Assembly: GCA_020723925.1 (NCBI GenBank)
Contig: DYHX01000002.1
Location: 1-54,577, forward strand
Length of the DNA: 54,577 nt
Origin: Nitrospira japonica
GTDB taxonomy: Bacteria > Nitrospirota > Thermodesulfovibrionia > Thermodesulfovibrionales > DYHX01
Reading direction: 5' to 3'
The translations under genes were made by a program, and so were the position numbers. Position 1 is the stretch's first letter. The number at the start of each line of letters is the position of its first letter. The notes beneath the pieces are model-generated. The model saw only the letters and a program-made list of their open reading frames with translations, did no database searches and was not told where the DNA came from. Shown here piece by piece: positions 630-17,007 of this stretch.

Positions 630-696
630 TAAAAAGGCCAGGAGGTCTAAAAAAGCTTTCGCGGCTTTTTTGTTTGCGCGGGAATGGAGGTTTTAA

Positions 697-1368
697 ATGC
701 ATATACCTGATGGATATTTAGGGCCAATAACATATGGGAGTTTGTGGGCAGCCATTGCACCCATATGGTTTTATGCCTCTAAAAAAATAAAGGAGACGAT
801 GAAGGCATCTCAGGTACCATTCCTTGCCCTTGGCGCAGCCTTTAGTTTTGTTATCATGATGTTTAATGTGCCGATACCTGGTGGTGCGACAGGCCATGCA
901 ACTGGTGCTACTCTCATTGCGATATTTATAGGGCCATGGGCTGCAATAATGGCTGTATCCATTGCCCTCATCATTCAAGCTCTTATCTTTGGAGACGGCG
1001 GGATTACAGCTATAGGTGCAAATTGTTTTAATATAGGTTTTGCAGGGGTGCTTGTTGGTTATAGGATATACAGGCTGATTGCAGGGAAGTCGGATGTAAC
1101 ATCCAGAAAAAGGGTAATAGGAGCTGGGATAGGTGCATATATAGGTATCAACCTTGCTGCCTTTCTCACTGCCTTTGAACTCGGTATACAGACCGTGTTA
1201 CATGTAGGAGCGGATGGAAGGCCACTTTACAGCCCATTCCCTTTAAGCATCACTATACCTGCAATAATGTTAGAGCATATATTTCTTTTTGGAATTGTTG
1301 AGGCATTGGTTACTGTGCTTGTGCTTCTGTATATTCAGAAGTCACATCCAGAGTTGATAAGAGGGTAA
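697..1368 (+). CDS. cbiM: Cobalt/nickel ECF transporter substrate-capture component CbiM
   Basis: The N-terminus MHIPDGYL is the hallmark metal-binding N-terminus of CbiM/NikM. The protein is a 223-aa polytopic membrane protein. A GGAGG-like site (ggaatggagg) lies upstream. Confidence 0.9.
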   Translation: MHIPDGYLGPITYGSLWAAIAPIWFYASKKIKETMKASQVPFLALGAAFSFVIMMFNVPIPGGATGHATGATLIAIFIGPWAAIMAVSIALIIQALIFGDGGITAIGANCFNIGFAGVLVGYRIYRLIAGKSDVTSRKRVIGAGIGAYIGINLAAFLTAFELGIQTVLHVGADGRPLYSPFPLSITIPAIMLEHIFLFGIVEALVTVLVLLYIQKSHPELIRG

Positions 1369-1370
1369 CA

Positions 1371-1736
1371 ATGAAAAGTTCAAAGTTAAAAGTTAAAACT
1401 TTATGGTTTAAAAAATTGTGGATCGGAATTGGAATTTTGGTACTTCTATCTCCACTTGGCCTTATCATTCCTGATCTATTAAAGGCTGGCGGTGCATGGG
1501 GAGAGTGGGGGACAAATGAGATCGAAAAGGTTGCAGGCTATGTCCCTCACGGACTCAAAAAGCTATCGGAACTCTGGTCTGCTCTAATCCCTGATTATGC
1601 CTTTTCTGGATGGGATAGAGGGATAAAGTCATACATTGCATACATCATATCGGGTCTTATTGGTGTTGCAATAATTGTTGGAGTAACATATCTTTTTGCA
1701 AAGATTCTCAAAAGAGGTGAACGGGGAATGAATTAG
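1371..1736 (+). CDS. PDGLE-domain / CbiN-like small membrane component of the CbiMNQO transporter
   Basis: The gene starts 3 nt after cbiM. It has two terminal TM helices flanking AWGEWG...YVPHGLKKLSELW (a PDGLE-type segment). Position and size fit CbiN/PDGLE proteins. Confidence 0.7.
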   Translation: MKSSKLKVKTLWFKKLWIGIGILVLLSPLGLIIPDLLKAGGAWGEWGTNEIEKVAGYVPHGLKKLSELWSALIPDYAFSGWDRGIKSYIAYIISGLIGVAIIVGVTYLFAKILKRGERGMN

Positions 1737-1918
1737 AAAAGCTAAAGAAATTGCTTCATCATTGGATGGAGCATAACGATGAGCAGAGATTACAGGGAGT
1801 GGGCAGAGAAGGCATCATCCCTTAGTAATGAGGGTTTATCAAAGATTCTCGGCAGGCTTTATCATGAGACAAAAAATTGAATGGGCTTTTTGAAGAAGCT
1901 ATAAAGACGATTGGTTAA
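1728..1918 (+). pseudogene. Frame-disrupted copy of the ~65-aa HW(V/M)EHN helical module that forms the C-terminus of CbiO (16804-17007)
   Basis: Three pieces align to MSDLDKLKRLLEHWVEHNVGHAKTYTEWAEKADAMGKNKLAWTLKEIADETERLNLLFNRAIEATNL. They are ELEKLKKLLHHWMEHNDEQ (frame of 1730), DYREWAEKASSLSNEGLSKILGRLYHETK (frame of 1779) and KLNGLFEEAIKTIG-stop (frame of 1730 again, stop at 1916-1918). The ATG at 1728 is followed immediately by TAG. Confidence 0.65.
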
Positions 1919-2074
1919 ACTTGGAGTATTATGAAAACATATGCTATAAACTTAGCAAAGCTATAAGGATCATTGGTCATGAAAGTCAGAATGCTTTTGC
2001 AGCTTATTTTGTTTCTGAGGAGGTGAGAATTAAGTAACAAGTAACGAGTAACAAGTAAGAAGAAAAAATAATTA

Positions 2075-2265
2075 CCAGATGGCTGGGTGTCAGGGAAGAG
2101 GAGTGGAATTCTCCCGCTGCCCCGCAGCCGTAAAGGGAACGAAAGCCCAAAAAGAAGCCACTGGAGTAAGACTGTTTGAACTGCTTGAACGGTTTGAACG
2201 GTTTCTCCGGGAAGGCGGGTGAGTAGATATAAGTATAAGCCCTGAGCCGGAAGACCTATCCAGAC
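2075..2265 (+). promoter_or_regulatory. Cobalamin (B12) riboswitch upstream of the first TonB-dependent receptor
   Basis: Conserved cores appear in the right order: cagggaag, gagtggaattctcc, gctgccccgcagccgtaaa, agccactgg, ccgggaaggcgg, and a B12-box-like gagccggaagacct. The variable arm carries a tandem ttgaacgg repeat (2172-2206). Confidence 0.8.
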
Positions 2266-2365
2266 AAAAAGTGCAGAGTTAAGAGTTCGGAGTTTAGAGT
2301 AAAAAAGAACACGAATAAAGACTCTGACACAAACCAAATCTAAAATTTTCTCGAGGGAGGAAAAA

Positions 2366-4390
2366 ATGAAAAGATTTTCGTCATTTGTTATTACATCTCT
2401 ACTTTTAGCCTTTAGCCATTTGCCATTTGCCCTTAGCCTGTTTGCTGTTCCTGTCTTTGCAGAACAGAAGACCGCATCGCTTGAAGAGATCGTAGTAACC
2501 GCAACAAAAGTCGAAGAACCCAAAAAGGATGTTCCTGCATCTGTCCAAATAATCACTCAAGAAGATATTAAAAGCTCCACTGCAAAAAATGTAGGAGACC
2601 TGCTCTCAGAAGCCGGTATCGGACATGTCCACAAGTATCCAGGAGCATTAACAGGCAGAATCGGCATCAGGGGATTGGCCGGTGACGCCCATGACAGCTC
2701 ATTCAAAAATAAGATTCTCGTCCTTGTGAATGGAAGCCTTGCCGGAACATCCAATCTTGCATTGATTCCAGTTGATAACATCGAAAGGATAGAGATAGTA
2801 AAAGGGCCTGCCTCTGTGCTTTACGGTTCACAGGCTATGGGCGGTGTTATCAACATAATAACAAAGGAGGGTAAGGAAGACATCCACGGCTCTGCGGGAG
2901 TAGAAGCTGGCTCATGGAAGTTCTGGAAGACAAGTGCTGAACTGAATGGAAAGAAAGGGGCATTTGATTTTTACCTTACAGCGAGCCGTTCTGCAATGGA
3001 TGATTATAAGGCAAAAATTAAAGATAAAAACGGTAATGATTATGGAAAAAATACAGGCTACAACGATGAGGCGGTATCAGCCCGCTTCGGATATAGACTT
3101 TTTGATGGACATCATATCTCTGTTGGCCTGCAGCACTGGAAGGGATGGGAGATAGGCAACCCGAATGCGAGCTACAGCCCTGACTATGATGATCATACGT
3201 ATAAAGAGAGGAACGGTTTTGATATCGGATATAAGACAGAGACATTCAACGCAAAATATTATTTTGTCAAAAACAAAAGTGAAAACCATACGGTAACATC
3301 AGGCGCTATTACCAATACATACACTTCAGAAAAAGACACTCAGGGCATAAATGCTCAGAAGTCATTTCATATCAGTGACCACAGGGTAATAATCGGCGGT
3401 CAATGGGACAGGACAGAGGTTGATAGCTGGAGAAACACTGGAGCGCCGTATAATCCCAATTCAAGCTGGGACAGTTATGGCGCATTTGCAGAAGGCAGAT
3501 TAAGCCTTTTCAACAAAAAACTTCTTTTGAGCGCAGGGCTTCGTTATGACTATTTTGAAAACAGAATACTTTCAACGCCTGGCATCCCAAGCGTTAAACC
3601 GAGAAAAGAAGACCTTGATAATGTATCTGTAAGAGGAGGCCTCGTTTATAAGCTTACAGACAGCTTTAGTCTCAAAGGCAATATCGGCACAGCCTTCCGC
3701 GCGCCTGCTCCTGATGAGCTTGCAACGGATTATGTATCATCATGGGGGACACATTATATTGGAAATCCGAACTTAAAACCTGAGAAGAGCACATCCTATG
3801 ATGCAGGAGTTGAGTATTCAAAAGACCTTTTTAATGGTGGTTTAACGTTCTTTCATACGGACTTTAAAGACAAGATATTGAGCTATTATGACACGACCCT
3901 TTCTGCCCAGACCTTCAAGAATGTTGACGGCGCAACACTTCAGGGTATTGAAGCTAATTTCTCCTATGATGTGGGATTGGCTTCAGGTCTTAATATTTCC
4001 ATAGAGCCGTTTACAAATATCACTTATCACACAAGGTATTCAAGCAAAGATGACCTTGAAATAAGCAAATATGGGAAAATACTTCTTTACACTCCAAAGT
4101 GGACAGGGGCTTTCGGGATCAAGACTGGTCAGGAAAAATGGGAAGCACGACTTATTGCAAACTACACAGGTGATGAAAGGGTTCAGGATTGGGCACCTCC
4201 GTCAAATGGGAAGAATGTTGTAAAGAAGGGCGACTTCACAGTAGTGAATCTCAAGGGTTCCTATAAACCAATAAAGAATCTTGAAATCATGGCATCTGTA
4301 GAAAACCTCTTTGACAGGGCATATGAATATGTTCGGGGTTATCCGATGCCGGGGAGAACATTTGTAGCAGGGGTAAGGTGGATATTTTAG
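2366..4390 (+). CDS. btuB: TonB-dependent outer-membrane receptor, BtuB-like (riboswitch-controlled)
   Basis: The protein has a signal peptide and a TonB box (LEEIVVTATK). Plug motifs are IERIEIVKGPASVLYGSQAMGGVINIITK, and the C-terminus is aromatic (...GVRWIF). It sits directly downstream of a B12 riboswitch. The SD gggagg is at 2355-2360. Confidence 0.85.
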   Translation: MKRFSSFVITSLLLAFSHLPFALSLFAVPVFAEQKTASLEEIVVTATKVEEPKKDVPASVQIITQEDIKSSTAKNVGDLLSEAGIGHVHKYPGALTGRIGIRGLAGDAHDSSFKNKILVLVNGSLAGTSNLALIPVDNIERIEIVKGPASVLYGSQAMGGVINIITKEGKEDIHGSAGVEAGSWKFWKTSAELNGKKGAFDFYLTASRSAMDDYKAKIKDKNGNDYGKNTGYNDEAVSARFGYRLFDGHHISVGLQHWKGWEIGNPNASYSPDYDDHTYKERNGFDIGYKTETFNAKYYFVKNKSENHTVTSGAITNTYTSEKDTQGINAQKSFHISDHRVIIGGQWDRTEVDSWRNTGAPYNPNSSWDSYGAFAEGRLSLFNKKLLLSAGLRYDYFENRILSTPGIPSVKPRKEDLDNVSVRGGLVYKLTDSFSLKGNIGTAFRAPAPDELATDYVSSWGTHYIGNPNLKPEKSTSYDAGVEYSKDLFNGGLTFFHTDFKDKILSYYDTTLSAQTFKNVDGATLQGIEANFSYDVGLASGLNISIEPFTNITYHTRYSSKDDLEISKYGKILLYTPKWTGAFGIKTGQEKWEARLIANYTGDERVQDWAPPSNGKNVVKKGDFTVVNLKGSYKPIKNLEIMASVENLFDRAYEYVRGYPMPGRTFVAGVRWIF

Positions 4391-4410
4391 CTTAGGCTGA
4401 GAAAAGCTTG

Positions 4411-4516
4411 AGATTGCTTCGCCTACGGCTCGCAATGACCCCTCCGTGATCCTCCCCTTAGTAAGGGGAGGAATGGTGAGGTTGTCGTTGCGAGGAGCGG
4501 AGTGACGAAGCAATCT
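4411..4516. repeat. Palindromic MITE/REP-like element between the TBDR and cbiZ
   Basis: The arms agattgcttcgcctacggctcgcaatgac (4411-4439) and gtcgttgcgaggagcggagtgacgaagcaatct (4484-4516) are imperfect inverted repeats. They flank a central hairpin cctcccctta-g-taaggggagg (4451-4471). The element translates into the RNDN / PPLTKGR-type pseudo-peptides seen in spurious ORF 4202-4513. Confidence 0.7.
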
Positions 4517-4534
4517 AATAATTGGAGGATATAA

Positions 4535-5359
4535 ATGAAGAAACGAGTTTTATGGATTTTAATTTTTCTATTGATTCCCTCAATTGTCATGGCAGGGAAT
4601 ATTCCCCTGCCTCAAGGCCTCAATGCAAAGGCATCTGTAATCAAGACAGAAAAAGATGGTCTCTGGGAAAAGAGCCTGATTGTGCAGTTTCAAGAAAAAA
4701 GGCGTGTCCTTTCTACAAATGACGGCTTTGTTGATACAATGGCTGTTGTTAATCACTCTGCCCATCCCGAATTATGGAAAAGGGTGTGTCAGGAAATGAA
4801 GACAGAGCATGAAGTTGGCGGAAAGGTGTATTCAAGAAAGATAAAGGAAAGGATTGCAAAAATGCTCGGTATAAGAAGCGAAGACATTGCACAGATGGGC
4901 ACTGCCGCAGATATGGATAACCTTGCAGTAGTAACAAGGACATATAAACCATTTGCTGTCACGGCACTTGTAACAGCAGGTGCAAAGACTAATGCTTTAA
5001 GAGCAGGTGTTGACGAGGGAACCCATATTGAGGGAGAAGAGCCAAAGGGTACAGTTAACATTCTTATTCTCACCAATGCAAGGCTTACAGATGGTGCAAT
5101 GGCAAGGGCGATAGTGACAGTAACAGAGGCAAAGACCGCAGCCTTTGAGGACTTAAGAGTCCCGAGCAGCTATACAAAAAGTGTTCAGGCAACAGGCACA
5201 GGAACTGACAGCGTCATCGTTGTTTCAGGAATATCCGGACCGAAGGTCACTTATACAGGCGGCCACAGCAGAATTGGCGGATTAATAGGAAAGGCGGTCT
5301 ATGAAGCAGTAGTTGAGGCGCTTGGGAAACAAAATGGTTTTAAAAAATTTGACAAATAG
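4535..5359 (+). CDS. cbiZ: CbiZ-family adenosylcobinamide amidohydrolase homolog with an N-terminal Sec signal peptide
   Basis: CbiZ-like core: TALVTAGAKTNALRAG...GTVNILILTNARLTDGAMARAIVTVTEAKTAAFEDLRV...ATGTGTDSVIVV. The N-terminus MKKRVLWILIFLLIPSIVMAG is a classical signal peptide. SD GGAGG lies 6 nt before the ATG. Confidence 0.75.
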   Translation: MKKRVLWILIFLLIPSIVMAGNIPLPQGLNAKASVIKTEKDGLWEKSLIVQFQEKRRVLSTNDGFVDTMAVVNHSAHPELWKRVCQEMKTEHEVGGKVYSRKIKERIAKMLGIRSEDIAQMGTAADMDNLAVVTRTYKPFAVTALVTAGAKTNALRAGVDEGTHIEGEEPKGTVNILILTNARLTDGAMARAIVTVTEAKTAAFEDLRVPSSYTKSVQATGTGTDSVIVVSGISGPKVTYTGGHSRIGGLIGKAVYEAVVEALGKQNGFKKFDK

Positions 5360-5438
5360 AAGATCATTAATGTATTTTTATAAAAAACCTGAACTCGAAG
5401 TTCGGGGAGCAGTTTTAATTTATATCAAAGAAATTAAG

Positions 5439-5490
5439 GCCATGAAGGCTTTGCACCACGAAGGTGCAGACTTCATGGCTTTTTTGTTTG
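5439..5490 (+). terminator. Rho-independent terminator after cbiZ (nested hairpin plus U-run)
   Basis: The outer stem is gccatgaag (5439-5447) paired with cttcatggc (5471-5479). It encloses an inner hairpin gcacc-acgaa-ggtgc (5453-5467), followed by ttttttgttt. Confidence 0.8.
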
Positions 5491-5564
5491 AGACTCCAGA
5501 ATCATCCAGCCACGAAGGTCAGCCATATCTTCCAGGAAGGAAGGAAAAACTTTTTGGAGGATAT

Positions 5565-6269
5565 ATGGAAAAGACAATCTGTAAAAATGTAGCAACAGTT
5601 CAATTCTGGGACAGTTATGCAAAATGGTATAAGCTCTGGATGGAGCATAACGACTATCATCACAGGATCATTGAAACGCTTACCTCTATGGTCGAGCCGG
5701 GCTGGAGAGTTCTTGACATCGGCGCAGGAAACGGTGTCCTTTCTTTGCCTTTATGCGCTATTGGTTGTGAGGTGACGGCCATTGAACCTTCTGTTGGAAT
5801 GAGAAACCTTCTTTATGAAGATGCGTTCGGCAGAGGCATTGACTGGATTAATGTTGATGAGAGGAGATGGGAAGATGTTCCAAATTTTGCTCTGAACGAT
5901 TATGACCTCATTATGGCATGCAACAGTCTGCATCTGACAGAGATGGGCTTCAGACAGGCGCTTGAAAGGATATTCCATGCAAAACCGAAAAATGTCTTTG
6001 TCGTTACAGAACTCGGCGCTCCGGAGATAAAAGTTAAATGGCAATATGGAGATTACACAATGCTATTTACTAAATGCTATGAAACAGAGAGTTCTCTTGC
6101 CTATCACTCAACTGATGAGATTGTGGAATACTGGTCCTTTATAAAGGGCAGGAGACTCCATTCGTTTGAAATAGAAGGAATAATATCGAGGACTGTTTTT
6201 GAAGGCGATCATATGTGGCTAAAGGATACAGCCCGTGTAGGGATGTATTGGTGGGAGAGAAACACTTAA
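5565..6269 (+). CDS. Class I SAM-dependent methyltransferase
   Basis: Motif I is VLDIGAGNGVLSLPL. I placed the start at ATG 5565 (MEKTICKN..., SD ggagg 5 nt upstream) rather than at 5313. The upstream part of the tracked ORF runs through a terminator and hairpin repeats. Confidence 0.75.
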   Translation: MEKTICKNVATVQFWDSYAKWYKLWMEHNDYHHRIIETLTSMVEPGWRVLDIGAGNGVLSLPLCAIGCEVTAIEPSVGMRNLLYEDAFGRGIDWINVDERRWEDVPNFALNDYDLIMACNSLHLTEMGFRQALERIFHAKPKNVFVVTELGAPEIKVKWQYGDYTMLFTKCYETESSLAYHSTDEIVEYWSFIKGRRLHSFEIEGIISRTVFEGDHMWLKDTARVGMYWWERNT

Positions 6270-6292
6270 AGTAATATTTTTCATAAATATTT

Positions 6293-6318
6293 GAACTAAG
6301 CCACGAAGGCTTTAGTTC
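6293..6318 (+). other. Hairpin gaactaagcc-acgaa-ggctttagttc (CCACGAAGG motif copy 4) in the leader of the second TBDR operon
   Basis: Read directly: an 11-bp stem with one bulge and the same ACGAA loop as the copies at 617-629 and 5453-5467. Confidence 0.6.
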
Positions 6319-6361
6319 TCCTAAGAAAGGAGGTGACAGAAAAAATCTTAGGAGGTGTTTG

Positions 6362-9279: not shown

Positions 9280-9291
9280 AGGAGGACAAAT

Positions 9292-10059: not shown

Positions 10060-10670
10060 ATATCCTTGCAGGTCTTGAGACATTCCTGTATGTGATTTCA
10101 TCTGCACTTTTCTATCCTGTGGTGGCAGGGCTTGTTCTGCTTACATTCTGGATTGTTGTCTCTTTTGGTGGTTTTTTGAGGGAGCATATAGAGAGAAAAC
10201 AGGGAAACCCATCTGTATTGGGTAGATTTAAAAAAATCCTCGAATCGGAACTTTCAATTAATGCCGACAATACTGATATAAATCTGGAAAGGCGGCTGCA
10301 GGAAGCAGAGCTTGGACTTATCAAATCCCTTGATAAAATCAGATTTGCCATTCGTGTTGGTCCCGCCCTCGGCTTGATGGGAACACTAATTCCAATGGGC
10401 ATCGCACTTTCTGCCCTTGCACAGGGTGATATGCCGAAAATGGCCAGCAGCATGGTTACTGCCTTTACCACAACCGTTGTAGGACTTGCCTGCGGTGTGG
10501 CTGCATATTTGATGTCATTGGTGAAAGAAAAATGGGTAAGGGCTGATATTAACGAGATGGATTACCTCACAGAGCTAACGCTCCGAAATTCAAAATTAAA
10601 AATTCAAAATGCAACCATGGAGGAAAAAGATGAGATTTTTGAAGAGGCACAGACGCTTCGAAAGATATGA
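10056..10670 (+). CDS. MotA/TolQ/ExbB proton-channel family protein
   Basis: Three-TM topology with the family signature RVGPALGLMGTLIPMGIALSAL....TAFTTTVVGLACGVAAYL. Its start overlaps the previous stop as ATGA. Confidence 0.8.
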   Translation: MNILAGLETFLYVISSALFYPVVAGLVLLTFWIVVSFGGFLREHIERKQGNPSVLGRFKKILESELSINADNTDINLERRLQEAELGLIKSLDKIRFAIRVGPALGLMGTLIPMGIALSALAQGDMPKMASSMVTAFTTTVVGLACGVAAYLMSLVKEKWVRADINEMDYLTELTLRNSKLKIQNATMEEKDEIFEEAQTLRKI

Positions 10671-10968
10671 ACAGCCCCTTGAAGACCCAATTTCAGGGGT
10701 CGCAAATCTCTTTGACGCAAGCGTGGTTTTTATCGTGAGTATGATGATTGCCCTTTTCATGGCTTACAACATGCTCGATCTGCTTGACCCTAAATCGGAG
10801 GTCACGATCACAAAAAAGACCGCCGATGGAAAGATAGAGATAATCACAAAGAAAGGCAAGGAGATTAAGGCAAAAAAAGTGACCGATAAGAGATTAAGCG
10901 GTGAAGGCGAGAGGCTCGGAACAGCGTATCAATTAAAAGACGGGAGGGTTATTTATGTGCCAGAGTAA
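10630..10968 (+). CDS. DUF2149-type single-pass membrane protein (ExbD/TolR-like partner of the channel)
   Basis: MRFLKRHRRFE...GVANLFDASVVFIVSMMIALFMAY has an Asp at the helix entry, as in ExbD/TolR, followed by a small periplasmic beta-rich domain. The ATG at 10630 is preceded by ggagga (the track starts at 10609). Confidence 0.6.
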   Translation: MRFLKRHRRFERYEQPLEDPISGVANLFDASVVFIVSMMIALFMAYNMLDLLDPKSEVTITKKTADGKIEIITKKGKEIKAKKVTDKRLSGEGERLGTAYQLKDGRVIYVPE

Positions 10969-13900
10969 AGAAAATTCAAAAATTAAAAATCAAAATGTAA
11001 AATTAAGGTATTCCATAACTTTTATTTTTGCATTTTTCATTTTGCATTTCAGCATCGCCCATGCAGAGCCTTTGAAAATAAGCCTTTTGCTCGGAGACAC
11101 CCATTCAAGGACAGCCCTTGATGCAGTCAAGGCAATAGAAAAAGAATACCCTGATATAAAGGGAAAGATTGGCTTTCATGTCTATACGAGCAGAGGTATC
11201 AGGGAAAGGAAAGGTGAAGATATGGCTGTTGCATCCTCAAAGGTCGTTTTCATCCTCCTCATTATGGACAGACAGGGAGTTGAGCTGGTGAGACTGCATA
11301 TTGAAAAGGTGATAAAAAATGGTGGTAAGGTTTATGCAGTTGGTGGGATTTATAACAAAGAACACAAGGACATGGGGATAATAGATGATGAGGAGGTTAA
11401 GGCTTACTACAAAGAAAACGGCTTTGAGAATATAAAAAACATGATTCTGTTTGTGCTAAACAGAGATTTAGGGTTTAAGGTCTCATATAAAATGCCGGTT
11501 GCAGTCCCTGATTTTGGAATCTATATAAAACATGACAAAAGAGCTGTGGAGACTTATGATGAATTTTTAAAGTCTTACACACTTAACGCATCACGCATTA
11601 CGCATTACGATAAATGGATAGGGCTTGCCTTCAACAAAAGTTCCTTTGATTCCGACAATCTCAAGAATATAGACGCAGTAATTGAGAGCCTTGAAAGAGA
11701 AGGCTTTAATGTCCTGCCTGTCTATGGCTATCCACCCGAGAAGGCAATAGAGAAATACTTCTTTGATGAAAAAGGAAAAAGCAGGGTGAGATTTATCGTT
11801 GGACTCTCCATGAAGGTCGGTATAAATCCTAAGGCGCTGAATCCTGTCCTTGAGAGGCTCAATGTCCCTATTATCAATGCCATTACTCTTTACACCAAAT
11901 CAAAAGAGGAGTGGGAACAATCGCCTGCCGGCCTTGACATCTTTGAGAGGTCATGGCAAATAGCCCTGCCGGAGCTTGCAGGCATTATCCAGCCCACTGT
12001 CATTGCATCAAAGGAGAAGATGACTGATAAGGAGACCGGCATTGAATACATGGAGGAAAGACCGATACCGGAAAGGATAAGCAGGCTTACAGACAGGATT
12101 AAGGCATGGCTTAATCTTCAGGACAAACCAAACAAGGACAAAAAGATTGCAATCATCTATTACAATTATCCACCCGGCAAACAGAACATAGGCGCATCCT
12201 ATCTGAATGTGCTTCCTGAAAGTTTGTGGGAAATATTAAACAAGCTTAAGGCCGAGGGATATGACATAAGCAATCAGTCAGTGGTCAGCAATCAGGAAAT
12301 TAGTAAGGAGCAACTATTTAATAATATCCATAACTACGCAAGGAATATTGGCAATTGGGCTGCCGGAGAGATCGACAGGCTTGCAAAGAGTGGAAAGCCA
12401 ATACTGATTCCGATTGATACATATAAAAGATGGTTTGAGGAACTGCCGGAAGGGTTAAAGAAGGCTATCATAAAAAACTGGGGCAGGCCTGAAGATAATA
12501 AAGTCATGTCATGGACAGGCGCAAGCGGCACAAAATATATAATCATACCTGCTGTTCAATACGGAAATATTATTTTCACTCCGCAGCCTTCAAGGGGCTG
12601 GGAGCAGGATTCAATAAAGCTCTACCACGATGTCACTCTCGCACCGCACCATCAATATGTCGCCTTTTATTTATGGCTTAAAAAAGGATTTCAGGCGGAT
12701 GCTGTTGCGCATATCGGCACTCACGGCACGCATGAATGGCTCTCCGGTAAAGAGGTTGGATTTACGAATGAAGATCCTCCGGAGGCATTGATACAGGATT
12801 TGCCCAATATATATCCATACATTGTCGATGATGTTGGAGAAGGGCTTCAGGCAAAGAGGCGAGGCATGGCTGTAATCATCGACCATATGACACCGCCATT
12901 TGATAGGGCGGGAATGAATAAGGAATTGAAAGAGCTTGCAGCGCTTATTAACGACTACAATGCGGCTAAAGAGAAAAGCCCTTCACTTGCTGAGACAAAG
13001 CTTGATGATATAAATAAACTCGTAAAAAAGACAGGTATTCTTACAGACCTCAAACTCAAAGAAATTAAAAACCATGAAGAAATAGAGGAACTTGAGCATT
13101 ACATAAAAGAGATTTCAGAAAGACAGACTCCATTCGGACTTCACACCTTTGGCAAGACGCCTGATGGAAAATACAGAAAGAGCACAGCAGAGGCAATTCT
13201 ATCTATTGAAAAAGGGCTGTCAGATGAAGAACGGGGAAAAAGAATTGCTGATATGGAGCAAAGGATAATGCAATCAGGCAAGAGAGAACTTGACTCTTTT
13301 ATCGCAGCGCTTGCCGGCAAATACATCCCTGCTGGTCAGGGCAACGATCCGATTAGAAATCCTGATTCCTTACCAACGGGTAAAAATTTCTACTCCTTCG
13401 ATCCAACGAGAATACCATCAAAATCCACATATGAAATGGGTGTGAGGCTGGCAAAGGAACTCATAGAAGGCTATAAGCAAAGGCATGACATATATCCAGA
13501 CAAACTCACATTTAATCTCTGGGGTGTTGAAACCATAAGGCATGAAGGCGTGATGGACTCACAAATTATGTATCTCATGGGAATAAAGCCGAAATGGGAT
13601 GAAAGGGGAAGGGTAATAGGCATTGAGGCAATCCCCCGCTCTGAACTCGGAAGACCCCGCATTGATGTAACCATTGTCCCATCAGGGCTTTACAGGGATT
13701 TATTTTCCAATCTCATGGCACTGCTCGATAATGCTGTGAGCTTAGCAAAGGAACAGAATGAAGAAGACAATATCTTAAGGTCAAATGTCTTAAAGACCAA
13801 GAAGATGCTCATGGAAAAAGGTATTACAGAAGACAGGGCAGAAAAGCTTGCATCTGTAAGGCTATTCACCGTGCCTTCAGGCGCTTACGGAACAAACCTT

Positions 13901-14962
13901 GATAAGGTAATCCCAATGTCAAATACATGGGCTGATGAAAAACAGGTTGCCGATGTATATTTCATGAGGATGAGTTATATGTACGGGCAGGGGTTCTGGG
14001 GTGAAAAAATAGTGCGACAGAACGATAGTGCGACAGAGCGACAAGAAGATATAAGTCTTACCCTTTTAAAAACAGCCCTTTCAGGAACAAAGATGGCTGT
14101 TCACAGCCGTTCGGGTAATGTGTATGCAACCCTTGATAATGATGACTTCTTTCAATACCTTGGCGGTACTGCAATGGCGATACGTGCAGTTGATGGAAAG
14201 ACACCAGAGGTTTATGTCACGAATATGTCCAATCCCAAAATGCCGAAGCAGGAGACCCTTGAGAAATTCATGGGTAGGGAGATGAGGGCGAGGTATCTTA
14301 ATCCTGAGTGGATAAAGGCCATGATGAAGGAGGGCTATGCAGGCGCTCGTTTTGTTGATAAGGTTGTTGAGCATCTATGGGGATGGCAGGTTACAGTGCC
14401 GGAGGCAGTGGATGCAGCAAAGTGGAATGAGATGTATGAGACCTATGTCCTGGACAGGAACGGACTAAACATAAAAGAGATGTTCAAACAGTCAAAGAAC
14501 ATGTGGGCTTATCAATCCATTGTAGCGAGGATGCTTGAGACAGTGAGAAAGGACTATTGGAAACCTGATAAAAAAATAGTTGAGACCCTCGCAAAGGAAT
14601 ATGCAGAGAGCGTGAAAGAGGTTGGCCTTGCATGCTGCGACCACACATGCAATAATCCGTTGCTTACAAAATTTACCTCTTCTGTGCTGATGTCTGTGCC
14701 TGGATTGAAGGCTCAGGTGAATGGATTTATGAAGGCATTAAAAACAGTCCAGAGTCAAGAGTCAGGAGTCAAGAGTCAAAAAGACAAATCACTAACAAAA
14801 ACATCTGCACCAGACGGAAAAGGTAAAAAGGTAGAGGGCTACGAAATACAGGATATAAATGCATCTGGGGCATCATCCGTACCAATCCCGTGGCTATTCT
14901 TGCTCGGATTTTTAGTATTTTTAGGGCTGATAATGCTTGGATGGAGAAAGACAAGGACATAA
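10955..14962 (+). CDS. cobN: CobN/Mg-chelatase-H family protein (1335 aa) with an N-terminal signal peptide and a C-terminal membrane anchor, HmuS-like
   Basis: It has the length of the CobN family and I recognise CobN-like stretches throughout (e.g. AHIGTHGTHEWLSGKEVG, MAVIIDHMTPPF, GLHTFG, NPDSLPTGKNFYSFDP, NLWGVETIRHEG, VPSGLYRD). The N-terminus ...RYSITFIFAFFILHFSIAHA-EP is signal-like. The C-terminus is PIPWLFLLGFLVFLGLIMLGWRKTRT (14882-14959). Confidence 0.85.
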   Translation: MCQSKENSKIKNQNVKLRYSITFIFAFFILHFSIAHAEPLKISLLLGDTHSRTALDAVKAIEKEYPDIKGKIGFHVYTSRGIRERKGEDMAVASSKVVFILLIMDRQGVELVRLHIEKVIKNGGKVYAVGGIYNKEHKDMGIIDDEEVKAYYKENGFENIKNMILFVLNRDLGFKVSYKMPVAVPDFGIYIKHDKRAVETYDEFLKSYTLNASRITHYDKWIGLAFNKSSFDSDNLKNIDAVIESLEREGFNVLPVYGYPPEKAIEKYFFDEKGKSRVRFIVGLSMKVGINPKALNPVLERLNVPIINAITLYTKSKEEWEQSPAGLDIFERSWQIALPELAGIIQPTVIASKEKMTDKETGIEYMEERPIPERISRLTDRIKAWLNLQDKPNKDKKIAIIYYNYPPGKQNIGASYLNVLPESLWEILNKLKAEGYDISNQSVVSNQEISKEQLFNNIHNYARNIGNWAAGEIDRLAKSGKPILIPIDTYKRWFEELPEGLKKAIIKNWGRPEDNKVMSWTGASGTKYIIIPAVQYGNIIFTPQPSRGWEQDSIKLYHDVTLAPHHQYVAFYLWLKKGFQADAVAHIGTHGTHEWLSGKEVGFTNEDPPEALIQDLPNIYPYIVDDVGEGLQAKRRGMAVIIDHMTPPFDRAGMNKELKELAALINDYNAAKEKSPSLAETKLDDINKLVKKTGILTDLKLKEIKNHEEIEELEHYIKEISERQTPFGLHTFGKTPDGKYRKSTAEAILSIEKGLSDEERGKRIADMEQRIMQSGKRELDSFIAALAGKYIPAGQGNDPIRNPDSLPTGKNFYSFDPTRIPSKSTYEMGVRLAKELIEGYKQRHDIYPDKLTFNLWGVETIRHEGVMDSQIMYLMGIKPKWDERGRVIGIEAIPRSELGRPRIDVTIVPSGLYRDLFSNLMALLDNAVSLAKEQNEEDNILRSNVLKTKKMLMEKGITEDRAEKLASVRLFTVPSGAYGTNLDKVIPMSNTWADEKQVADVYFMRMSYMYGQGFWGEKIVRQNDSATERQEDISLTLLKTALSGTKMAVHSRSGNVYATLDNDDFFQYLGGTAMAIRAVDGKTPEVYVTNMSNPKMPKQETLEKFMGREMRARYLNPEWIKAMMKEGYAGARFVDKVVEHLWGWQVTVPEAVDAAKWNEMYETYVLDRNGLNIKEMFKQSKNMWAYQSIVARMLETVRKDYWKPDKKIVETLAKEYAESVKEVGLACCDHTCNNPLLTKFTSSVLMSVPGLKAQVNGFMKALKTVQSQESGVKSQKDKSLTKTSAPDGKGKKVEGYEIQDINASGASSVPIPWLFLLGFLVFLGLIMLGWRKTRT

Positions 14963-14980
14963 GTTGCTATTTTGCTGTTC

Positions 14981-15946
14981 ATGGGGTTAAATAAAAGGAT
15001 GGAAATTCCTGATTGGCTGAAACAGACAGAACACAGAATACAGAACACAGAATACAGAAAAACAAAAGAGAAGTTTCTTGATAAGACACTCAGCCATGTC
15101 GTCTCATTCACTGAAGATACGATGTTTAATGAAAGGGTTTCTGCAAAGAAAGGCCTTCTGCAGGGGATCGAACCCAGATTAAAGACAGCCTGCCTCCTCG
15201 GGTTCATTGTTGTTTTGAGTCTCCAGAAAACTATCGGAGGTATTGCTTTATTTTTGCTCATGTCTTTTTTTATGGCATTTGCATCTAAGGTGTCGTTTGC
15301 CCTGCTCTTGAAGAGGCTTATACCTGCCGCTGTGTTTACAGCATTCATAGCCATGCCTGCAACGTTGAATATAATTGTGAAGGGCGAGGCCCTATTAACG
15401 CTATATACCTTTGAAAAAACCTACAGCCTTGGCCCTATAGCCATTCCAGCAGAGGTATCGATAACAAGGCAGGGGTTGCTCAGTGCATTAACTCTGTTTT
15501 TGAGGGTTATTGCATCTGTCTCAATAGTTTTTCTTTTGACCCTGACAACACCACCAAACAGACTTATAAAGGCAGTCTCCTCTTTTATGCCAAGGGCATT
15601 GAAATCAATAGTCTCCATAAGCTACAGATACATCTTCTTCCTTGTTCGGGAGGTTGAGCAGTTTATAATGGGCTTTAAATCAAGAAATGTCTCATTGGGG
15701 TTCCCAAAAGGTCGTAAGACCTTTTGGGGTGCAGAGCAGAAATGGGTTGCATCAAGGGTAAGCCTTTTATTCTCGATCAGCCTGAGGCTGAGCAATGAGC
15801 TTGAGCGAGCTATGGAGTCACGGGGATACAAGACTGAAGATGATAGATTTCAGATGTCAGATTTCAGATTTTCGAGATATGATGCAGGCTGGATAATCTT
15901 TTGTATAATCTTTTCAGGAGCTATGATTTGGAAGTCTTTGGCGTAG
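14981..15946 (+). CDS. cbiQ: Cobalt ECF transporter T component CbiQ
   Basis: EcfT/CbiQ-type polytopic protein (…ITRQGLLSALTLFLRVIASVSIVFLLTLTTPPNRLIKA…ISYRYIFFLVREVEQFIMGFKSRN). The start is ambiguous among in-frame TTG 14972, ATG 14981 and ATG 14999. Confidence 0.8.
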   Translation: MGLNKRMEIPDWLKQTEHRIQNTEYRKTKEKFLDKTLSHVVSFTEDTMFNERVSAKKGLLQGIEPRLKTACLLGFIVVLSLQKTIGGIALFLLMSFFMAFASKVSFALLLKRLIPAAVFTAFIAMPATLNIIVKGEALLTLYTFEKTYSLGPIAIPAEVSITRQGLLSALTLFLRVIASVSIVFLLTLTTPPNRLIKAVSSFMPRALKSIVSISYRYIFFLVREVEQFIMGFKSRNVSLGFPKGRKTFWGAEQKWVASRVSLLFSISLRLSNELERAMESRGYKTEDDRFQMSDFRFSRYDAGWIIFCIIFSGAMIWKSLA

Positions 15947-17007
15947 ACAAAATATCTTACACCTACAAAGACGGCAAGAAAGCCCTTGATGAAGTCTCGT
16001 TTAATGTCCGAGAAGGAGAGAGCCTGACAATAATCGGGACAAATGGCTCAGGCAAATCAACACTCCTTTATCTTCTTGACGGTCTCCTGATGCCTGAATC
16101 AGGAAGCATAAAGATATTCGGCAAGGATTTAGACAATGGATTTCTGCCCGAGTTCAGAGAGCGGATATCTCTTTTATTCCAGAACCCTCAGGTCCAGCTC
16201 TTTTTATTGAGTGTCTGGGATGAATTGTGTTTCGGACCGTTACAGCTTGGACTTAATAAGGATGATATCAAAAAAAGATCAGAGGATATCCTTAAATTAT
16301 TAGGGATCGAACATCTGAGAGAGAGAGGCCCGTGGAATCTTAGCAGCGGAGAGATGAAAAAGGTCGCCCTCGGCACATGCCTGAGCACAAACGCCGATGT
16401 AATCCTTCTTGATGAGCCAACAACAGGACTCGATCCGAGGAGTCAGGTAGAGCTTGTTGATTTGATAATTGGCCTTCAAAAGGCTGGAAAGACCATAATC
16501 ACAGCAACCCATGACCTCGGAATCATTGAGGATATCTCTGACAGGACAATTGTTCTCGGAGAAGACCACAGGGTTCTTTTGGAAGGGAAGCCGTGGGATG
16601 TGATGGAGGACACAAAGGCACTTCTTCAGGCAAACCTCATCCACAAACATGCACACAGGCACTGCTGGTATGTGCATGAGCACAGCCATTTTGGAGAGCA
16701 CAAACATGAACATATATCAGCTACAACAGTCGGCAGTCTTCAGTCGATAGTCGATAGTCATGAAGAAAAAAATTTAGGAATAAAAGAGGAGAAATGTTTT
16801 GAGATGAGCGATCTGGATAAGCTTAAAAGGTTGCTTGAGCACTGGGTGGAGCACAATGTTGGGCATGCAAAGACCTACACCGAATGGGCTGAGAAGGCAG
16901 ATGCGATGGGCAAAAACAAGCTTGCATGGACATTAAAAGAGATTGCGGATGAGACAGAAAGGCTCAATCTGCTATTTAACAGGGCAATAGAAGCGACAAA
17001 TCTTTAA
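15928..17007 (+). CDS. cbiO: Cobalt ECF transporter ATPase CbiO with a His-rich linker and a C-terminal helical HWVEHN module
   Basis: Walker A GTNGSGKST, signature LSSGEMKKV, Walker B ILLDEPTTGLD, H-loop ATHD. These are followed by HKHAHRHCWYVHEHSHFGEHKHEH (16642-16713) and a 67-aa helical tail. TTG 15928 (MEVFGVDKISY) lies 7 nt after aggag; the track starts at TTG 15901. Confidence 0.85.
   Translation: MEVFGVDKISYTYKDGKKALDEVSFNVREGESLTIIGTNGSGKSTLLYLLDGLLMPESGSIKIFGKDLDNGFLPEFRERISLLFQNPQVQLFLLSVWDELCFGPLQLGLNKDDIKKRSEDILKLLGIEHLRERGPWNLSSGEMKKVALGTCLSTNADVILLDEPTTGLDPRSQVELVDLIIGLQKAGKTIITATHDLGIIEDISDRTIVLGEDHRVLLEGKPWDVMEDTKALLQANLIHKHAHRHCWYVHEHSHFGEHKHEHISATTVGSLQSIVDSHEEKNLGIKEEKCFEMSDLDKLKRLLEHWVEHNVGHAKTYTEWAEKADAMGKNKLAWTLKEIADETERLNLLFNRAIEATNL

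Follow-up and report, generated by a model that had tools for sequence, protein, structure and literature searches.

Organization of the locus

In a subsurface Nitrospirota bacterium, the four genes of a nickel/cobalt importer are found in two parts, with a 13-kb tetrapyrrole-uptake block between them. The M and N genes occupy positions 697-1736 and the Q and O genes positions 14999-17007 of the window (the whole stretch of DNA analysed, 54.6 kb), on a common strand (+) and separated by 13.2 kb. The intervening block contains a cobalamin riboswitch, two TonB-dependent receptors (TBDRs), CbiZ, a methyltransferase, TonB and a DUF2162/ExbB/DUF2149/CobN-family module. The original prediction, in which a cbiM-cbiN pair and a cbiQ-cbiO pair bracket a set of uptake genes, is borne out: every gene that it named is found in place or nearby, all on the + strand. 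A search of the whole window yielded no further gene for M, N, Q, O or NikR. The features are as follows (A and B denote importer cassette types of related genomes, described below):

337-413, +, tRNA-Arg(CCT), the left neighbour of the cluster
441-482, no strand assigned, palindromic multi-copy repeat with a TTCCCCGCAGCTTGCTGCGGGGAA core, left edge of the cluster
547-580 (within 547-600), +, 13-nt direct repeats, two and a half copies (TCAAATTGTTGTG)
571-600, +, sigma-70-like promoter TTGCAA-18-TATATT, overlapped by the 13-nt direct repeats
617-672, +, leader hairpin 1 with T-run (AGCCACGAAGGCT...AGCTTTCGCGGCT TTTTTT), 5' of the M gene
697-1368, +, ECF S component, NikM2-type M (CbiM family PF01891, 2.6e-57)
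1371-1736, +, PDGLE-domain small membrane partner, NikN-type, type B (PF13190)
1727-1918, +, type-A DUF8180 pseudogene, heading the intervening block
2068-2277, +, cobalamin riboswitch aptamer (RF00174, 69.5 bits; gathering cut-off 31.5 bits)
2366-4390, +, TonB-dependent receptor 1
4535-5359, +, CbiZ, adenosylcobinamide amidohydrolase (PF01955, 3.7e-53)
5349-5378, +, promoter-like site TTGACA-18-TATTTT
5438-5486, +, leader hairpin 2 with T-run (z = -5.9; extra half-site at 5509-5519)
5565-6269, +, SAM-dependent methyltransferase (ORF 5313-6269; the true start is probably ATG 5565)
6293-6318, +, small hairpin with the leader-hairpin motif GCCACGAAGGC, immediately 5' of receptor 2
6359-8560, +, TonB-dependent receptor 2 (HmuR position)
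8530-9279, +, TonB (PF03544)
9292-10059, +, DUF2162 membrane protein (PF09930, 1.8e-60), in the probable HmuT position
10056-10670, +, MotA/ExbB-family protein, HmuU-like
10609-10968, +, DUF2149 protein, HmuV-like
10955-14962, +, CobN/ChlH-superfamily protein, BtuS/HmuS-like
14963-14998, +, spacer with a degenerate 3'-end remnant of a type-B nikN (weak similarity in alignment)
14999-15946, +, ECF T component (CbiQ/NikQ), long type-B form with the AMESRG coupling motif
15928-17007, +, ECF ATPase (CbiO/NikO)
16637-16714, +, His-rich linker of CbiO/NikO
16804-17004, +, fused C-terminal DUF8180 domain of CbiO/NikO (from precomputed Pfam hits on homologues)

The M protein begins with MHIPDGYL, has the conserved Met1, His2 and His67, and scores 225 bits against TtNikM2 (4M58), which is Ni-specific (PMC3945884), versus 59 bits against a cobalt CbiM (5X3X). 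Because the transporter is of the NikM2/NikN type, with an M of the nickel rather than the cobalt type and a PDGLE/NikN-type N, and is linked to NikR in relatives, the cobalt label 'cbi' that was originally applied is not the better one. CbiQ is recognized by TIGR02454 (112.7 bits; cutoff 111.8), and its start is most likely ATG 14999 rather than 14981, given that the resulting MEIPDWL matches MEIPEWL of the relatives. The most likely start of cbiO is TTG 15928, which follows AGGAG and lies within the 3' end of cbiQ, so that the two genes overlap. The M, N, Q and O genes are all intact, whereas the adjacent DUF8180 remnant is decayed. The Walker A/B, signature and H-loop motifs, AMESRG of the T component and the Met1/His2/His67 metal site are all present, and the importer genes look functional by these sequence features. 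The GC3 values of the two pairs are unequal (0.34 for M-N versus 0.47 for Q-O).

At the left edge, tRNA-Arg(CCT) is not found at the corresponding position in any relative. Many contigs of run X1 stop at the adjacent palindromic repeat, where the depth is ~116 compared to ~9 in the flanks; another copy of the repeat is present at 31832-31855. Upstream of cbiM, the position of the promoter is kept in relatives but the 13-nt repeats are not. Leader hairpin 1, which matches no Rfam family, is conserved upstream of cbiM in L009, L026 and L030. In the promoter with direct repeats that had been proposed for the S component, the conserved element is thus the promoter together with a terminator-like hairpin, and not the repeats. 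Such a hairpin, with a GCCAYGAAGGC arm, heads both cbiM and the unit that extends from the methyltransferase to cbiO; the type at 5438-5486 is also located 5' of the methyltransferase in L002. The N-terminus of the methyltransferase contains a W-MEHN-YH motif that resembles the one of DUF8180.

The cobalamin riboswitch, which was missing from the first list of features, is also present in 12 relatives, in front of the receptor-to-CobN module. Receptor 1 and CbiZ are paired in L012, L022, L124 and L004, and receptor 2 shows 69-81% identity among relatives. The CobN-family protein has a secretory N-terminus resembling a signal peptide and carries a membrane anchor at its C-terminus; among solved structures, HmuS is its best match (499 bits). 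The plain 'CobN' identity was set aside in favour of a secreted, membrane-anchored, HmuS/BtuS-like protein.

Importer cassettes in related genomes and the two junctions

The importer cassettes of the relatives belong to three types (A, B and C) and are almost always contiguous. In 15 related loci (11 of type B, 3 of type A and 1 of type C) N is directly followed by Q, in agreement with the earlier statement that CbiMNQO genes are normally adjacent. Both halves in the window are of type B, a type that is often linked to NikR (found at the head of the cassettes in L031, L033, L116, L117, L120 and L121). The identity to type-B loci is 71-94% for M, 55-73% for N, 51-71% for Q and 73-82% for O, compared to 47-53% for M, 28-31% for Q and 41-45% for O with type-A loci. 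The nearest relative of N (73% identity), Q and O is L030 for all three, whereas the M protein is 94% identical to that of L033. Type-B cassettes are mosaic (at the DNA level, M is 92-96% identical to L033, unlike N, Q and O, and further short patches match L030 at 88-98% identity), so that a shared nearest relative is a soft argument.

At the left junction, type-B homology extends up to GGGGAATGAATT, where nikQ would have its start codon, and changes to type-A homology inside a 6-8-nt microhomology; from exactly position 1726, the sequence is collinear with the DUF8180-riboswitch-TBDR1 stretch of L004. The DUF8180 remnant has no start codon and carries one 5-nt and one 1-nt deletion, and is therefore read in three frames. 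It resembles type A much more than it does the type-B DUF8180 of the window: tblastx segments are 50-100% identical to type-A copies, whereas the type-B DUF8180 aligns in just two short segments (65% and 31%). In relatives, a type-A cassette with DUF8180 as its last gene is located directly 5' of the equivalent riboswitch (L004, L007, L009 and L026). At the right junction, type-B homology reaches back ~25-35 nt 5' of the nikQ ATG. The proposed translational coupling of the T/A genes to CobN does not hold, since the 36-nt spacer with the degenerate nikN 3' remnant intervenes and the RBS is weak.

Incomplete cassettes are also present in relatives. In L004, L010 and L017, a type-C cbiMN that lacks Q/O directly adjoins the riboswitch module, and Q-O without M-N is found after aspS in L038 and L039, which makes supply of Q/O in trans plausible. 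Among the loci in which the region is visible, a Q-O pair downstream of CobN is found in none of the relatives, and a shared architecture was rejected on this ground.

Origin of the split arrangement

The two gene pairs appear to be the halves of one NikM2-type ECF nickel/cobalt importer of type B. A rearrangement would have brought a block of 13.2 kb (1727-14962) precisely to the nikN/nikQ overlap, with the decayed type-A DUF8180 gene at its head, followed by the riboswitch, TBDR1-CbiZ, then methyltransferase-TBDR2-TonB-DUF2162-ExbB-DUF2149, and the CobN-family gene last. Insertion into a contiguous MNQO cassette is favoured on three counts: the halves share a cassette type, the N/Q overlap is the site of both junctions, and the block is headed by a decayed gene of another cassette. 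The split would therefore be a secondary, lineage-specific rearrangement. Thus, of the two readings originally offered, an uptake island inside an ancestral cbiMNQO operon best explains the arrangement in the window. The complete model, in which this insertion is combined with assembly in trans and a metal hand-off, is considered moderately probable. The order of events is deduced from sequence comparison and, with Q-O after CobN in a single genome, has neither independent replication nor outgroup polarity via intermediate states. A complete second transporter may exist beyond the window, in which case either half could be redundant.

That the MAG contig fuses fragments of different genomes at both junctions is extremely improbable. 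Short, highly repeated elements nearby (441-482, 14746-14782 and 15020-15058) do interrupt Logan contigs and the cassettes are mosaic, but these repeats are intragenic or distant from the junctions. Both junctions lie within Logan contigs from a single public metagenome run, with an even depth of ~9-10x and zero mismatches: a 2850-nt contig covers M-N, the pseudogene, the riboswitch and TBDR1, and a 5473-nt contig covers the 3' end of CobN, cbiQ and further sequence. No alternative joints or loose ends were found in these contigs at 1736 or 14963-14999, so that the initial concern about an assembly chimera can be dismissed. A different route to the same arrangement, although unlikely, deserves more weight. 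It starts from an ancestor similar to L033/L035, with a whole type-B NikR-OMP-M-N-Q-O-DUF8180 cassette after CobN and a type-A cassette before the riboswitch; M-N with its leader would have been copied or moved upstream, replacing the type-A M-N-Q-O, and the downstream NikR-OMP-M-N deleted, leaving the last ~30 nt of nikN before nikQ. The L033/L035 arrangement exists, with an M in L033 that is 94% identical to that of the window, type-A cassettes do precede the riboswitch in the four relatives listed above, and a residual 3' piece of nikN lies before nikQ. However, this route takes no fewer than two or three events, and its two independent breakpoints would have to coincide at one N/Q overlap. 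Moreover, the leader and RBS region of M match the stand-alone L030 cassette rather than the OMP-M junction of L033, and N, Q and O are nearer to L030 than to L033.

The pairs could also be unrelated partial systems, each served or made redundant by partners elsewhere, with their flanking positions a coincidence. The M-N-only and Q-O-only loci of relatives, the recent history of M unlike that of N, Q and O, the unequal GC3 and the genome beyond the window, which could hold the partners, are compatible with this. Nevertheless, both pairs are of one cassette type, the junctions lie at the same point of the cassette, the left N and the right Q/O share a nearest relative and 54.6 kb contain no further set, all of which makes such a coincidence rather improbable. 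Marginally less probable again is that the architecture is selected, with the S component deliberately placed under a metal-responsive leader and T/A with a de-chelatase, the second of the original readings. The same hairpin type does precede both transcription units, and recurs before cbiM and methyltransferase genes in relatives, and M-N pairs immediately 5' of the riboswitch recur in three lineages. Yet deliberate co-regulation lacks the support of recurrence because no relative, where the region is visible, has Q-O after CobN; in addition, the pseudogene and the junction scars point to an accident, and Q is uncoupled from CobN.

Proposed expression and function

Under the insertion model, M-N would be transcribed from its own promoter through the terminator-like leader hairpin, and Q-O would be the last genes of a long unit that starts either at the riboswitch or at the second promoter-plus-hairpin (5349-5486). 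This scheme, including co-transcription, is read from the sequence. Riboswitch control of Q-O is doubtful because the hairpin at 5438-5486 is terminator-like. By analogy with other ECF S components and T/A modules, M, N, Q and O are predicted to assemble in trans and to import Ni2+ or Co2+. The CobN-family protein would strip an imported metallo-tetrapyrrole, most probably a corrinoid, of its metal, and the importer would then take up the released ion. HmuS is a de-chelatase that faces the periplasm (PMC12583661), but the HmuS-specific LSLDHxxEFMGG motif is absent from the window's CobN-family protein, so that both de-chelation and its substrate are extrapolations.

The cues for the metal conflict: the NikM2-type sequence and NikR linkage indicate nickel, whereas the riboswitch and CbiZ indicate cobalt/corrinoid, and the proposed hand-off leaves this conflict standing. 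The adjacency of the importer and the CobN module may be functional. The predicted physical tie of metal-ion import to tetrapyrrole import is real and recurs in relatives, and the split importer hints at a repeated association of metal-ion import with a periplasmic chelatase-like enzyme.

Comparison with known systems

Similarly to the NikMNQO/CbiMNQO importers (TtNikM2, PDB 4M58; Rhodobacter capsulatus CbiMQO, PDB 5X3X), this system has four intact components, including a small N partner, a CbiQ T component and an ABC ATPase, as well as linkage to NikR in relatives; M shares with TtNikM2 a predicted Met1-His2...His67 square-planar metal site. In contrast to these importers, M-N and Q-O do not form a single operon and at least one regulatory element lies between them; Q is long (~315 aa), O has a His-rich linker and a DUF8180 domain, and the metal specificity is putative. 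In having S genes unlinked from T/A and needing assembly in trans, the system resembles group II ECF transporters, with their shared EcfAA'T module and scattered S genes. However, ECF transporters for metals are the classic example of group I, the dedicated systems encoded by one operon; in the window, a single S component can be seen and T/A module sharing is conjectural.

The receptor-to-CobN module resembles the hmu haem-uptake operon of Bacteroidota (HmuYRSTUV; HmuS, PDB 9D26) in its TonB-dependent receptor, extracytoplasmic anchored CobN-superfamily protein, MotA/ExbB and DUF2149 proteins, but has no HmuY, differs in gene order and includes additional TonB and DUF2162 genes. Where HmuS has LSLDHxxEFMGG (His-1209, Glu-1212), the window protein has the CobN-like LDNDDFFQYLGG. 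Furthermore, the hmu operon relies on FeoB, whereas the module described here is under a cobalamin riboswitch, beside CbiZ and flanked by a Ni/Co importer. Operons similar to hmu with a cobalamin riboswitch in front have been described (Rodionov et al. 2003, as cited in PMC6460266). In these operons and in the BtuS family (Bacteroides fragilis BtuS1/BtuS2; PMC10100974), as here, a CobN-like protein that is neither CobN nor ChlH is encoded with TonB-dependent receptors behind a cobalamin riboswitch, and its role in corrinoid metabolism is suspected but unproven. No description of linkage to Nik/Cbi ECF cassettes was found for the Bacteroides BtuS loci in the cited literature; the locus described here differs from these in belonging to the phylum Nitrospirota and in the presence of Nik/Cbi ECF cassettes on either side, a linkage that is recurrent in relatives.

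Organization of the split importer cluster

The genes for the two halves of the ECF metal importer in the window, the S component and its small partner (M-N) and the T component and ATPase (Q-O), bracket a block of uptake genes on a single strand, as the original prediction held, and all the genes it named were located. A cobalamin riboswitch in this block was missing from its list.

Features of the importer cluster (coordinates, strand, feature)
697-1368, +, CbiM-family gene (M)
1371-1736, +, PDGLE-domain gene (N), 3 nt after M
2068-2277, +, cobalamin riboswitch (RF00174; 69.5 bits against a gathering threshold of 31.5; full length, 1-189)
2366-4390, +, TonB-dependent receptor (TBDR1)
4535-5359, +, CbiZ
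5313-6269, +, methyltransferase ORF; start placed at ATG 5565 by comparison with relatives
6359-8560, +, TonB-dependent receptor (TBDR2)
8530-9279, +, TonB
9292-10059, +, DUF2162
10056-10670, +, MotA/ExbB
10609-10968, +, DUF2149
10955-14962, +, CobN-family gene, 1335 aa; stop codon 14960-14962
14999 (ATG; MEIPDWL), +, start of the CbiQ gene (Q), placed by comparison with relatives
15928-17007, +, ABC ATPase gene (cbiO, O), from a TTG behind AGGAG; start placed by comparison with relatives

The gap between the stop of N (1736) and the start of Q (14999) amounts to 13.2 kb, so that the one-operon layout of group I importers is not found here. A search across the window revealed no second M, N, Q or O set, and the region from 17 to 54.6 kb consists of housekeeping genes. 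The closest homologues come from Nitrospirota, namely Thermodesulfovibrionales and Dissulfurispira-like MAGs. The gene convergent with cbiO (17070-19076, minus strand) encodes a diguanylate cyclase that has a PocR sensory domain at its N-terminus as well as a GAF domain; it is followed by a gene for a sigma-54 activator with a GAF domain (19148-20674, minus strand).

The alternative that the split is an assembly chimera is very unlikely. The sequence is present in one public subsurface-metagenome run (the public runs that carry it are DNA metagenomes only), and both junctions lie in Logan contigs that match 630-3480 (2850 nt) and 14753 onward (5473 nt) with 0 mismatches at 9-10x; neither junction shows an alternative joint or a loose end among these contigs.

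A palindromic repeat of ~42 nt (TTCCCCGCAGCTTGCTGCGGGGAA core) is present at 441-482, between tRNA-Arg and the cbiM promoter, and at 31832-31855; it is multi-copy in the source metagenome, where many contigs end at it. Heptamer-type repeats (CTAACAA, GTAACAA/GTAACGA, ACAGAAT/ACAGAAC) are found at 310-330, 2032-2060, 14746-14782 and 15020-15058, some within coding sequence (the N-terminus of CbiQ and the 3' end of the CobN gene), and around 10030-10060 in the related locus L030; in several metagenome runs, fragments matching them reach very high depth, and Logan contigs are broken at them.

Importer cassettes in related genomes

The relatives compared comprise 28 genomic loci (L numbers) centred on DUF2162, the contexts of homologues of the window CbiQ, and a metagenome scan with a type-B CbiQ alignment, which gave five close relatives among the at least 80 loci listed. 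Their importer genes fall into three cassette types. Type A consists of M, PDGLE, a short Q, O and DUF8180. In L007, L009 and L026, it directly precedes the cobalamin riboswitch at the head of the receptor-to-CobN module; in L004, Q-O-DUF8180 alone is visible, at the locus edge. Type B consists of M, PDGLE, a long Q and an O with DUF8180, usually with NikR and sometimes with an outer-membrane channel upstream. It is mostly found in a conserved housekeeping context (L031, L116, L117, L118, L120 and L121) and, in L033/L035, directly downstream of CobN. The type C M carries a signal peptide and the sequence MHISEGILP, and scores 132 bits against the cobalt CbiM 5X3X; in the complete Dissulfurispira thermophila genome, this type forms a contiguous cbiMNQO within the B12 biosynthesis cluster.

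The expectation that CbiMNQO genes are normally contiguous is borne out by 15 related loci in which N is directly followed by Q (11 of type B, 3 of type A and 1 of type C). Among the loci with the region 3' of CobN visible, no relative has Q-O at this position; hem/cobA genes, NikR or unrelated genes are found there instead, including hem genes in a hot-spring genome related to D. thermophila, and homologues of the type-C cbiM yielded no second case either. Thus, the contiguous form prevails in the synteny comparison, and Q-O after CobN is seen in the window alone.

Halves of importers nevertheless occur separately. The metagenome scan also gave two loci, L038 (1-1993) and L039 (7-1968), in which a long-form cbiQ-cbiO pair starts 6-7 nt after aspS (aspartyl-tRNA synthetase) without M-N upstream; these pairs are stand-alone T/A modules. 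Conversely, type-C M-N pairs without Q or O are found in L004 (3937-5972), L010 (5467-6608) and L017 (3-233). The cbiM of L004 is preceded by a gene for an outer-membrane channel of the Phenol_MetA_deg family. In L030, the closest type-B relative of the window, cbiM (8946-9646) is interrupted: the reading frame shifts beyond residue ~130, where a repeat-like stretch has been inserted.

Origin of the split

Both halves in the window belong to type B, judging from protein identities.

Amino acid identity of the window importer proteins to the two cassette types
M: type B, 71-94%; type A, 47-53%
N: type B, 55-73%; type A, ~50%
Q: type B, 51-71%; type A, 28-31%
O (core): type B, 73-82%; type A, 41-45%

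The nearest relative common to N, Q and O is L030. An origin by complementary decay, with a type-A cassette upstream keeping M-N and a type-B cassette downstream keeping Q-O, was considered and is excluded because both halves match type B (M and N 94/73%, versus 53/50% for type A) and N, Q and O are all nearest to L030.

The intervening block has a different affiliation. Between nikN and the riboswitch, there is a decayed DUF8180 gene (1727-1918). It lacks a start codon, has deletions of 5 nt and, in an A-run, of 1 nt, and can be read in three frames (NELEKLKKLLHHWMEHNDE / YREWAEKASSLSNEGLSKILGRLYHETK / KLNGLFEEAIKTIG). It resembles the type-A proteins of L004 and L009 much more than it does the type-B copy present in the window itself. 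DNA homology with L004 starts at 1726 and continues, without a break, across the riboswitch and TBDR1. Accordingly, the 13.2-kb block is a piece of the layout with type A upstream of the riboswitch, minus M, N, Q and O. At the left junction, type-B homology extends up to GGGGAATGAATT, the nikQ start codon overlapping the nikN end, and switches to type-A homology inside an AATGAA(TT) microhomology. At the right junction, 36 nt separate the CobN stop from ATGGAAATTCCTGA, the conserved nikQ start, and the last ~25-35 nt of this spacer resemble the 3' end of a type-B nikN. Both breakpoints thus map to a single site in a type-B cassette, the N/Q overlap, so that the simplest scenario is a single event that would have placed the 13.2-kb block into the nikN/nikQ overlap.

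The same end state could have been reached in several steps from an ancestor resembling L033, a route that we consider unlikely. Type-B cassettes are mosaic: the window DNA is 92-96% identical to L033 across cbiM only (690-1320), and to L030 it is 94-98% identical at 1201-1380 and 88-92% at 15351-15590. Such patches, with 88-98% identity between type-B lineages that are otherwise ~70-80% identical, point to frequent recombination or transfer among these cassettes. Synteny of the flanks is uninformative as to which segment moved: beyond the cluster, the window has no flanking sequence in common with any relative, and the tRNA-Arg at the flank is unique to the window. Composition of the 1.9-15 kb region adds little: GC content is flat across the region, codon usage of the island differs modestly from that of the remaining window, and GC3 differs between M-N and Q-O, evidence that is weak because most of the proteins are membrane or secreted ones. 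Altogether, given the shared type, the shared N/Q breakpoint and the contiguous relatives, a rearrangement specific to this lineage, in a transporter whose genes are normally contiguous, best accounts for the split, in agreement with the first of the two originally proposed readings, insertion of an uptake block into an ancestral cassette.

The importer genes are arguably maintained, since M, N, Q and O are intact beside the decayed DUF8180 remnant. The loci with M-N only and those with Q-O only make assembly in trans plausible and suggest that unlinking of S from T/A is more widespread in this clade. A layout resembling group II, in which one T/A module serves several unlinked S components, is therefore plausible, with one S component present in the window. 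By itself, the split is a small curiosity, showing that a 'dedicated' metal ECF transporter tolerates unlinking of the S and T/A genes.

Predicted transcription units and a conserved leader hairpin

The second reading, deliberate co-regulation of the two halves with different parts of the pathway, fares less well. Direct repeats (547-580) are indeed present at the promoter of the S component, but they are not conserved in relatives. Translational coupling of Q-O to CobN is unsupported because a 36-nt spacer with a weak RBS separates Q from CobN. The terminator scan found no terminator-like site between CobN and Q, so that co-transcription is likely. Overall, counts in the sigma-70 promoter and terminator scans were not above those in shuffled sequences, and individual sites were used only where conserved in relatives.

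Upstream of cbiM, a strong hairpin and its T-run (617-672) lie downstream of a sigma-70-like promoter (571-600). The order of promoter, hairpin and gene and the GCCAYGAAGGC stem are retained upstream of cbiM in type-A (L009, 3914-3962; L026, 2985-3044) and type-B (L030, 8822-8875) cassettes. The same type of hairpin is found in the window at 5438-5486 (and 5509-5519), after a promoter-like site (5349-5378) and before the methyltransferase; the 5' arm is GCCAYGAAGGC and a T-run lies behind, and the sequence of the inner stem is wholly changed yet paired. A small copy is present at 6293-6318. Elsewhere, this hairpin precedes the methyltransferase in L002 (~1745), an outer-membrane-channel gene that itself precedes cbiM in L007 (~3430, ~80 nt upstream), and ExbB-like genes in L014 (~16883) and L019 (~16131). 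The window contains 8 matches to GCCAYGAAGGC with at most one mismatch versus 1.5 expected, and there are 15 exact matches in ~590 kb of loci, against a rough chance estimate of ~0.6. No credible Rfam family was found for the hairpin regions even at permissive thresholds, and the hairpin can be considered a candidate new cis-regulatory element.

The hairpin at 5438-5486 is terminator-like and, hence, the riboswitch in this window may control TBDR1-CbiZ only. The RF00174 riboswitch is also found in 12 relatives, in many of them directly before TBDR2 and the CobN module; given the possible internal terminator and promoter at 5349-5486, direct riboswitch control of the window CobN gene is uncertain. 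In L012, tandem cobalamin riboswitch aptamers (1706-1910 and 2085-2293) are located upstream of the TBDR1-CbiZ pair.

Identity of the importer

The label cbiMN/cbiQO in the original prediction is appropriate as to an ECF importer but less so as to cobalt. The M protein begins with MHIPDGYL and, in the alignment, keeps Met1, His2 and the histidine corresponding to His67 of TtNikM2, the metal ligands of this nickel-specific S component (PMC3945884); it scores 225 bits against TtNikM2 (PDB 4M58) and just 59 bits against the Rhodobacter cobalt CbiM (5X3X). The place of N, the small two-helix partner encoded beside M, is taken by a PDGLE protein and not by a classical CbiN. The Q protein matches PF02361 (1.2e-23) and TIGR02454 (112.7 bits, cutoff 111.8) and contains the coupling-helix motif of the Ala-Arg-Gly type (AMESRG at residue 271). 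All ATPase motifs are present in O, namely GTNGSGKS (Walker A), VILLDEP (Walker B), LSSGE (signature) and THD (H-loop). On these features, the transporter is classified as nickel-type NikMN/QO rather than cobalt cbi, with predicted Ni/Co uptake.

At its C-terminus, O ends in a domain of ~65 aa behind a His-rich linker (HKHAHRHCWYVHEHSHFGEHKHEH); this domain is named DUF8180 from precomputed Pfam annotation of homologues, and the window's own tail yielded no DUF8180 match in the local profile library. The motif (H/E)HW-x-EHN-x-(E/G/A)H is found in the window (16637-17004), L027 (6874-7056), L007 (7211-7408) and L033 (11809-12006). In the window, L026, L030 and L031, DUF8180 forms the tail of the ATPase, to which a His-rich linker joins it; L004, L007, L009 and L033 encode it separately, as a small gene, and in L027 it is placed between DUF2149 and CobN. 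A function in metal sensing or trans-inhibition is possible for this domain. At its N-terminus (AKWYKLWMEHNDY, 5622-5653), the methyltransferase contains a W-MEHN motif as in the DUF8180 copies, and this stretch is even similar at the DNA level to those at 1748-1779 and 16828-16859.

Association of metal importers with the CobN-like module

The proposed physical link between metal-ion import and tetrapyrrole import extends well beyond the window: Ni/Co importer genes of the three types adjoin the module in at least eight loci, window included. Type A is upstream in L004, L007, L009 and L026, type B downstream in L033, and a type-C cbiM with its small partner alone immediately ahead of the riboswitch-controlled module, or within it, in L004, L010 and L017. 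Upstream of the module in the hot-spring relative L124 (1-6751) are TonB-ExbB-ExbD, a CooT nickel-chaperone-like gene, a further receptor and DUF4198, which may be a nickel-related outer-membrane uptake set.

This recurrent association of an importer with a de-chelatase-like module is a more useful outcome than the split, the main value of which is as a pointer to it and to the conserved leader hairpin. During haem uptake by the hmu system, Fe2+ is freed by the de-chelatase in the periplasm and then enters the cell through FeoB (PMC12583661, PMC6460266). A comparable sequence of steps is proposed here: a corrinoid or some other metallo-tetrapyrrole would, once imported, lose its metal, and the ECF importer would take the place of FeoB in the uptake of Co or Ni. 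Cobalamin-riboswitch-controlled hmu-like operons are known but unexplained (PMC10100974), and the role of HmuS/CobN homologues beyond haem uptake has been stated as an open question (PMC12583661). The importer adjacency, together with CbiZ, yields a testable hypothesis, namely that corrinoids or other metallo-tetrapyrroles lose their metal in the periplasm and that the ion is then taken up.

It is doubtful, but conceivable, that the riboswitch-controlled HmuS/BtuS-like module of Thermodesulfovibrionia-like Nitrospirota is a metal-piracy machine. The TonB-dependent receptor would carry a corrinoid or another metallo-tetrapyrrole (e.g., F430) into the periplasm, the anchored CobN-family enzyme would remove Co or Ni, and the neighbouring Nik/Cbi importer would take the ion. 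The GCCAYGAAGGC hairpin, found before cbiM, the methyltransferase unit and some ExbB genes, would be a new attenuator co-ordinating these parts, and the His-rich DUF8180 tail of the ATPase would act as its metal sensor or as a trans-inhibition domain. If so, such piracy would account for the repeated settling of M-N pairs and whole cassettes of three types on either side of the module.

The CobN-family protein and comparison with known systems

The original designation 'CobN module' holds for the superfamily (PF02514, 1078 bits) but not for biosynthetic CobN. The closest solved relative of the window protein is HmuS (9D26, 499 bits), followed by CobN (433) and ChlH (415). The superfamily motif HxGxHG is retained as HIGTHG (residues 586-591), of the HFG(T/A)HG type of HmuS and equivalent to its His-538. 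The N-terminus resembles a signal peptide (...FSIAHA/EP), and a C-terminal hydrophobic helix is followed by RKTRT, so that the protein is predicted to be anchored in the membrane, with its catalytic part outside the cytoplasm. Among the window ORFs scanned with Pfam, none encodes an ATPase partner of the CobS/CobT or ChlI/ChlD kind.

The neighbours of this gene match components of the Porphyromonas hmu operon (PMC11681262), namely HmuR, HmuU (MotA/ExbB) and HmuV (DUF2149); unlike that operon, the window lacks HmuY, and DUF2162 may stand for HmuT. The HmuS-specific motif LSLDHxxEFMGG, with His-1209 and Glu-1212 (PMC12583661), is absent from the window protein, in which the aligned segment LDNDDFFQYLGG is like that of CobN (LDSDDYYQFEGG). 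HmuS proteins are further characterized by a Met-rich insertion and by the head/neck haem ligands Met-79 and His-254; a crude composition scan detected no Met-rich insertion in the window protein. BtuS has been described, in Rodionov 2003 as cited in PMC6460266, as a third type of CobN-like protein encoded in B12-regulated receptor operons, a group that also appears in PMC10100974. The CobN-like gene of the window likewise belongs to a receptor operon behind a cobalamin riboswitch. With its CobN-like motif in place of the HmuS-specific one, the protein fits the BtuS group rather than HmuS proper and is best classified as a BtuS/HmuS-like protein, not as a biosynthetic CobN.
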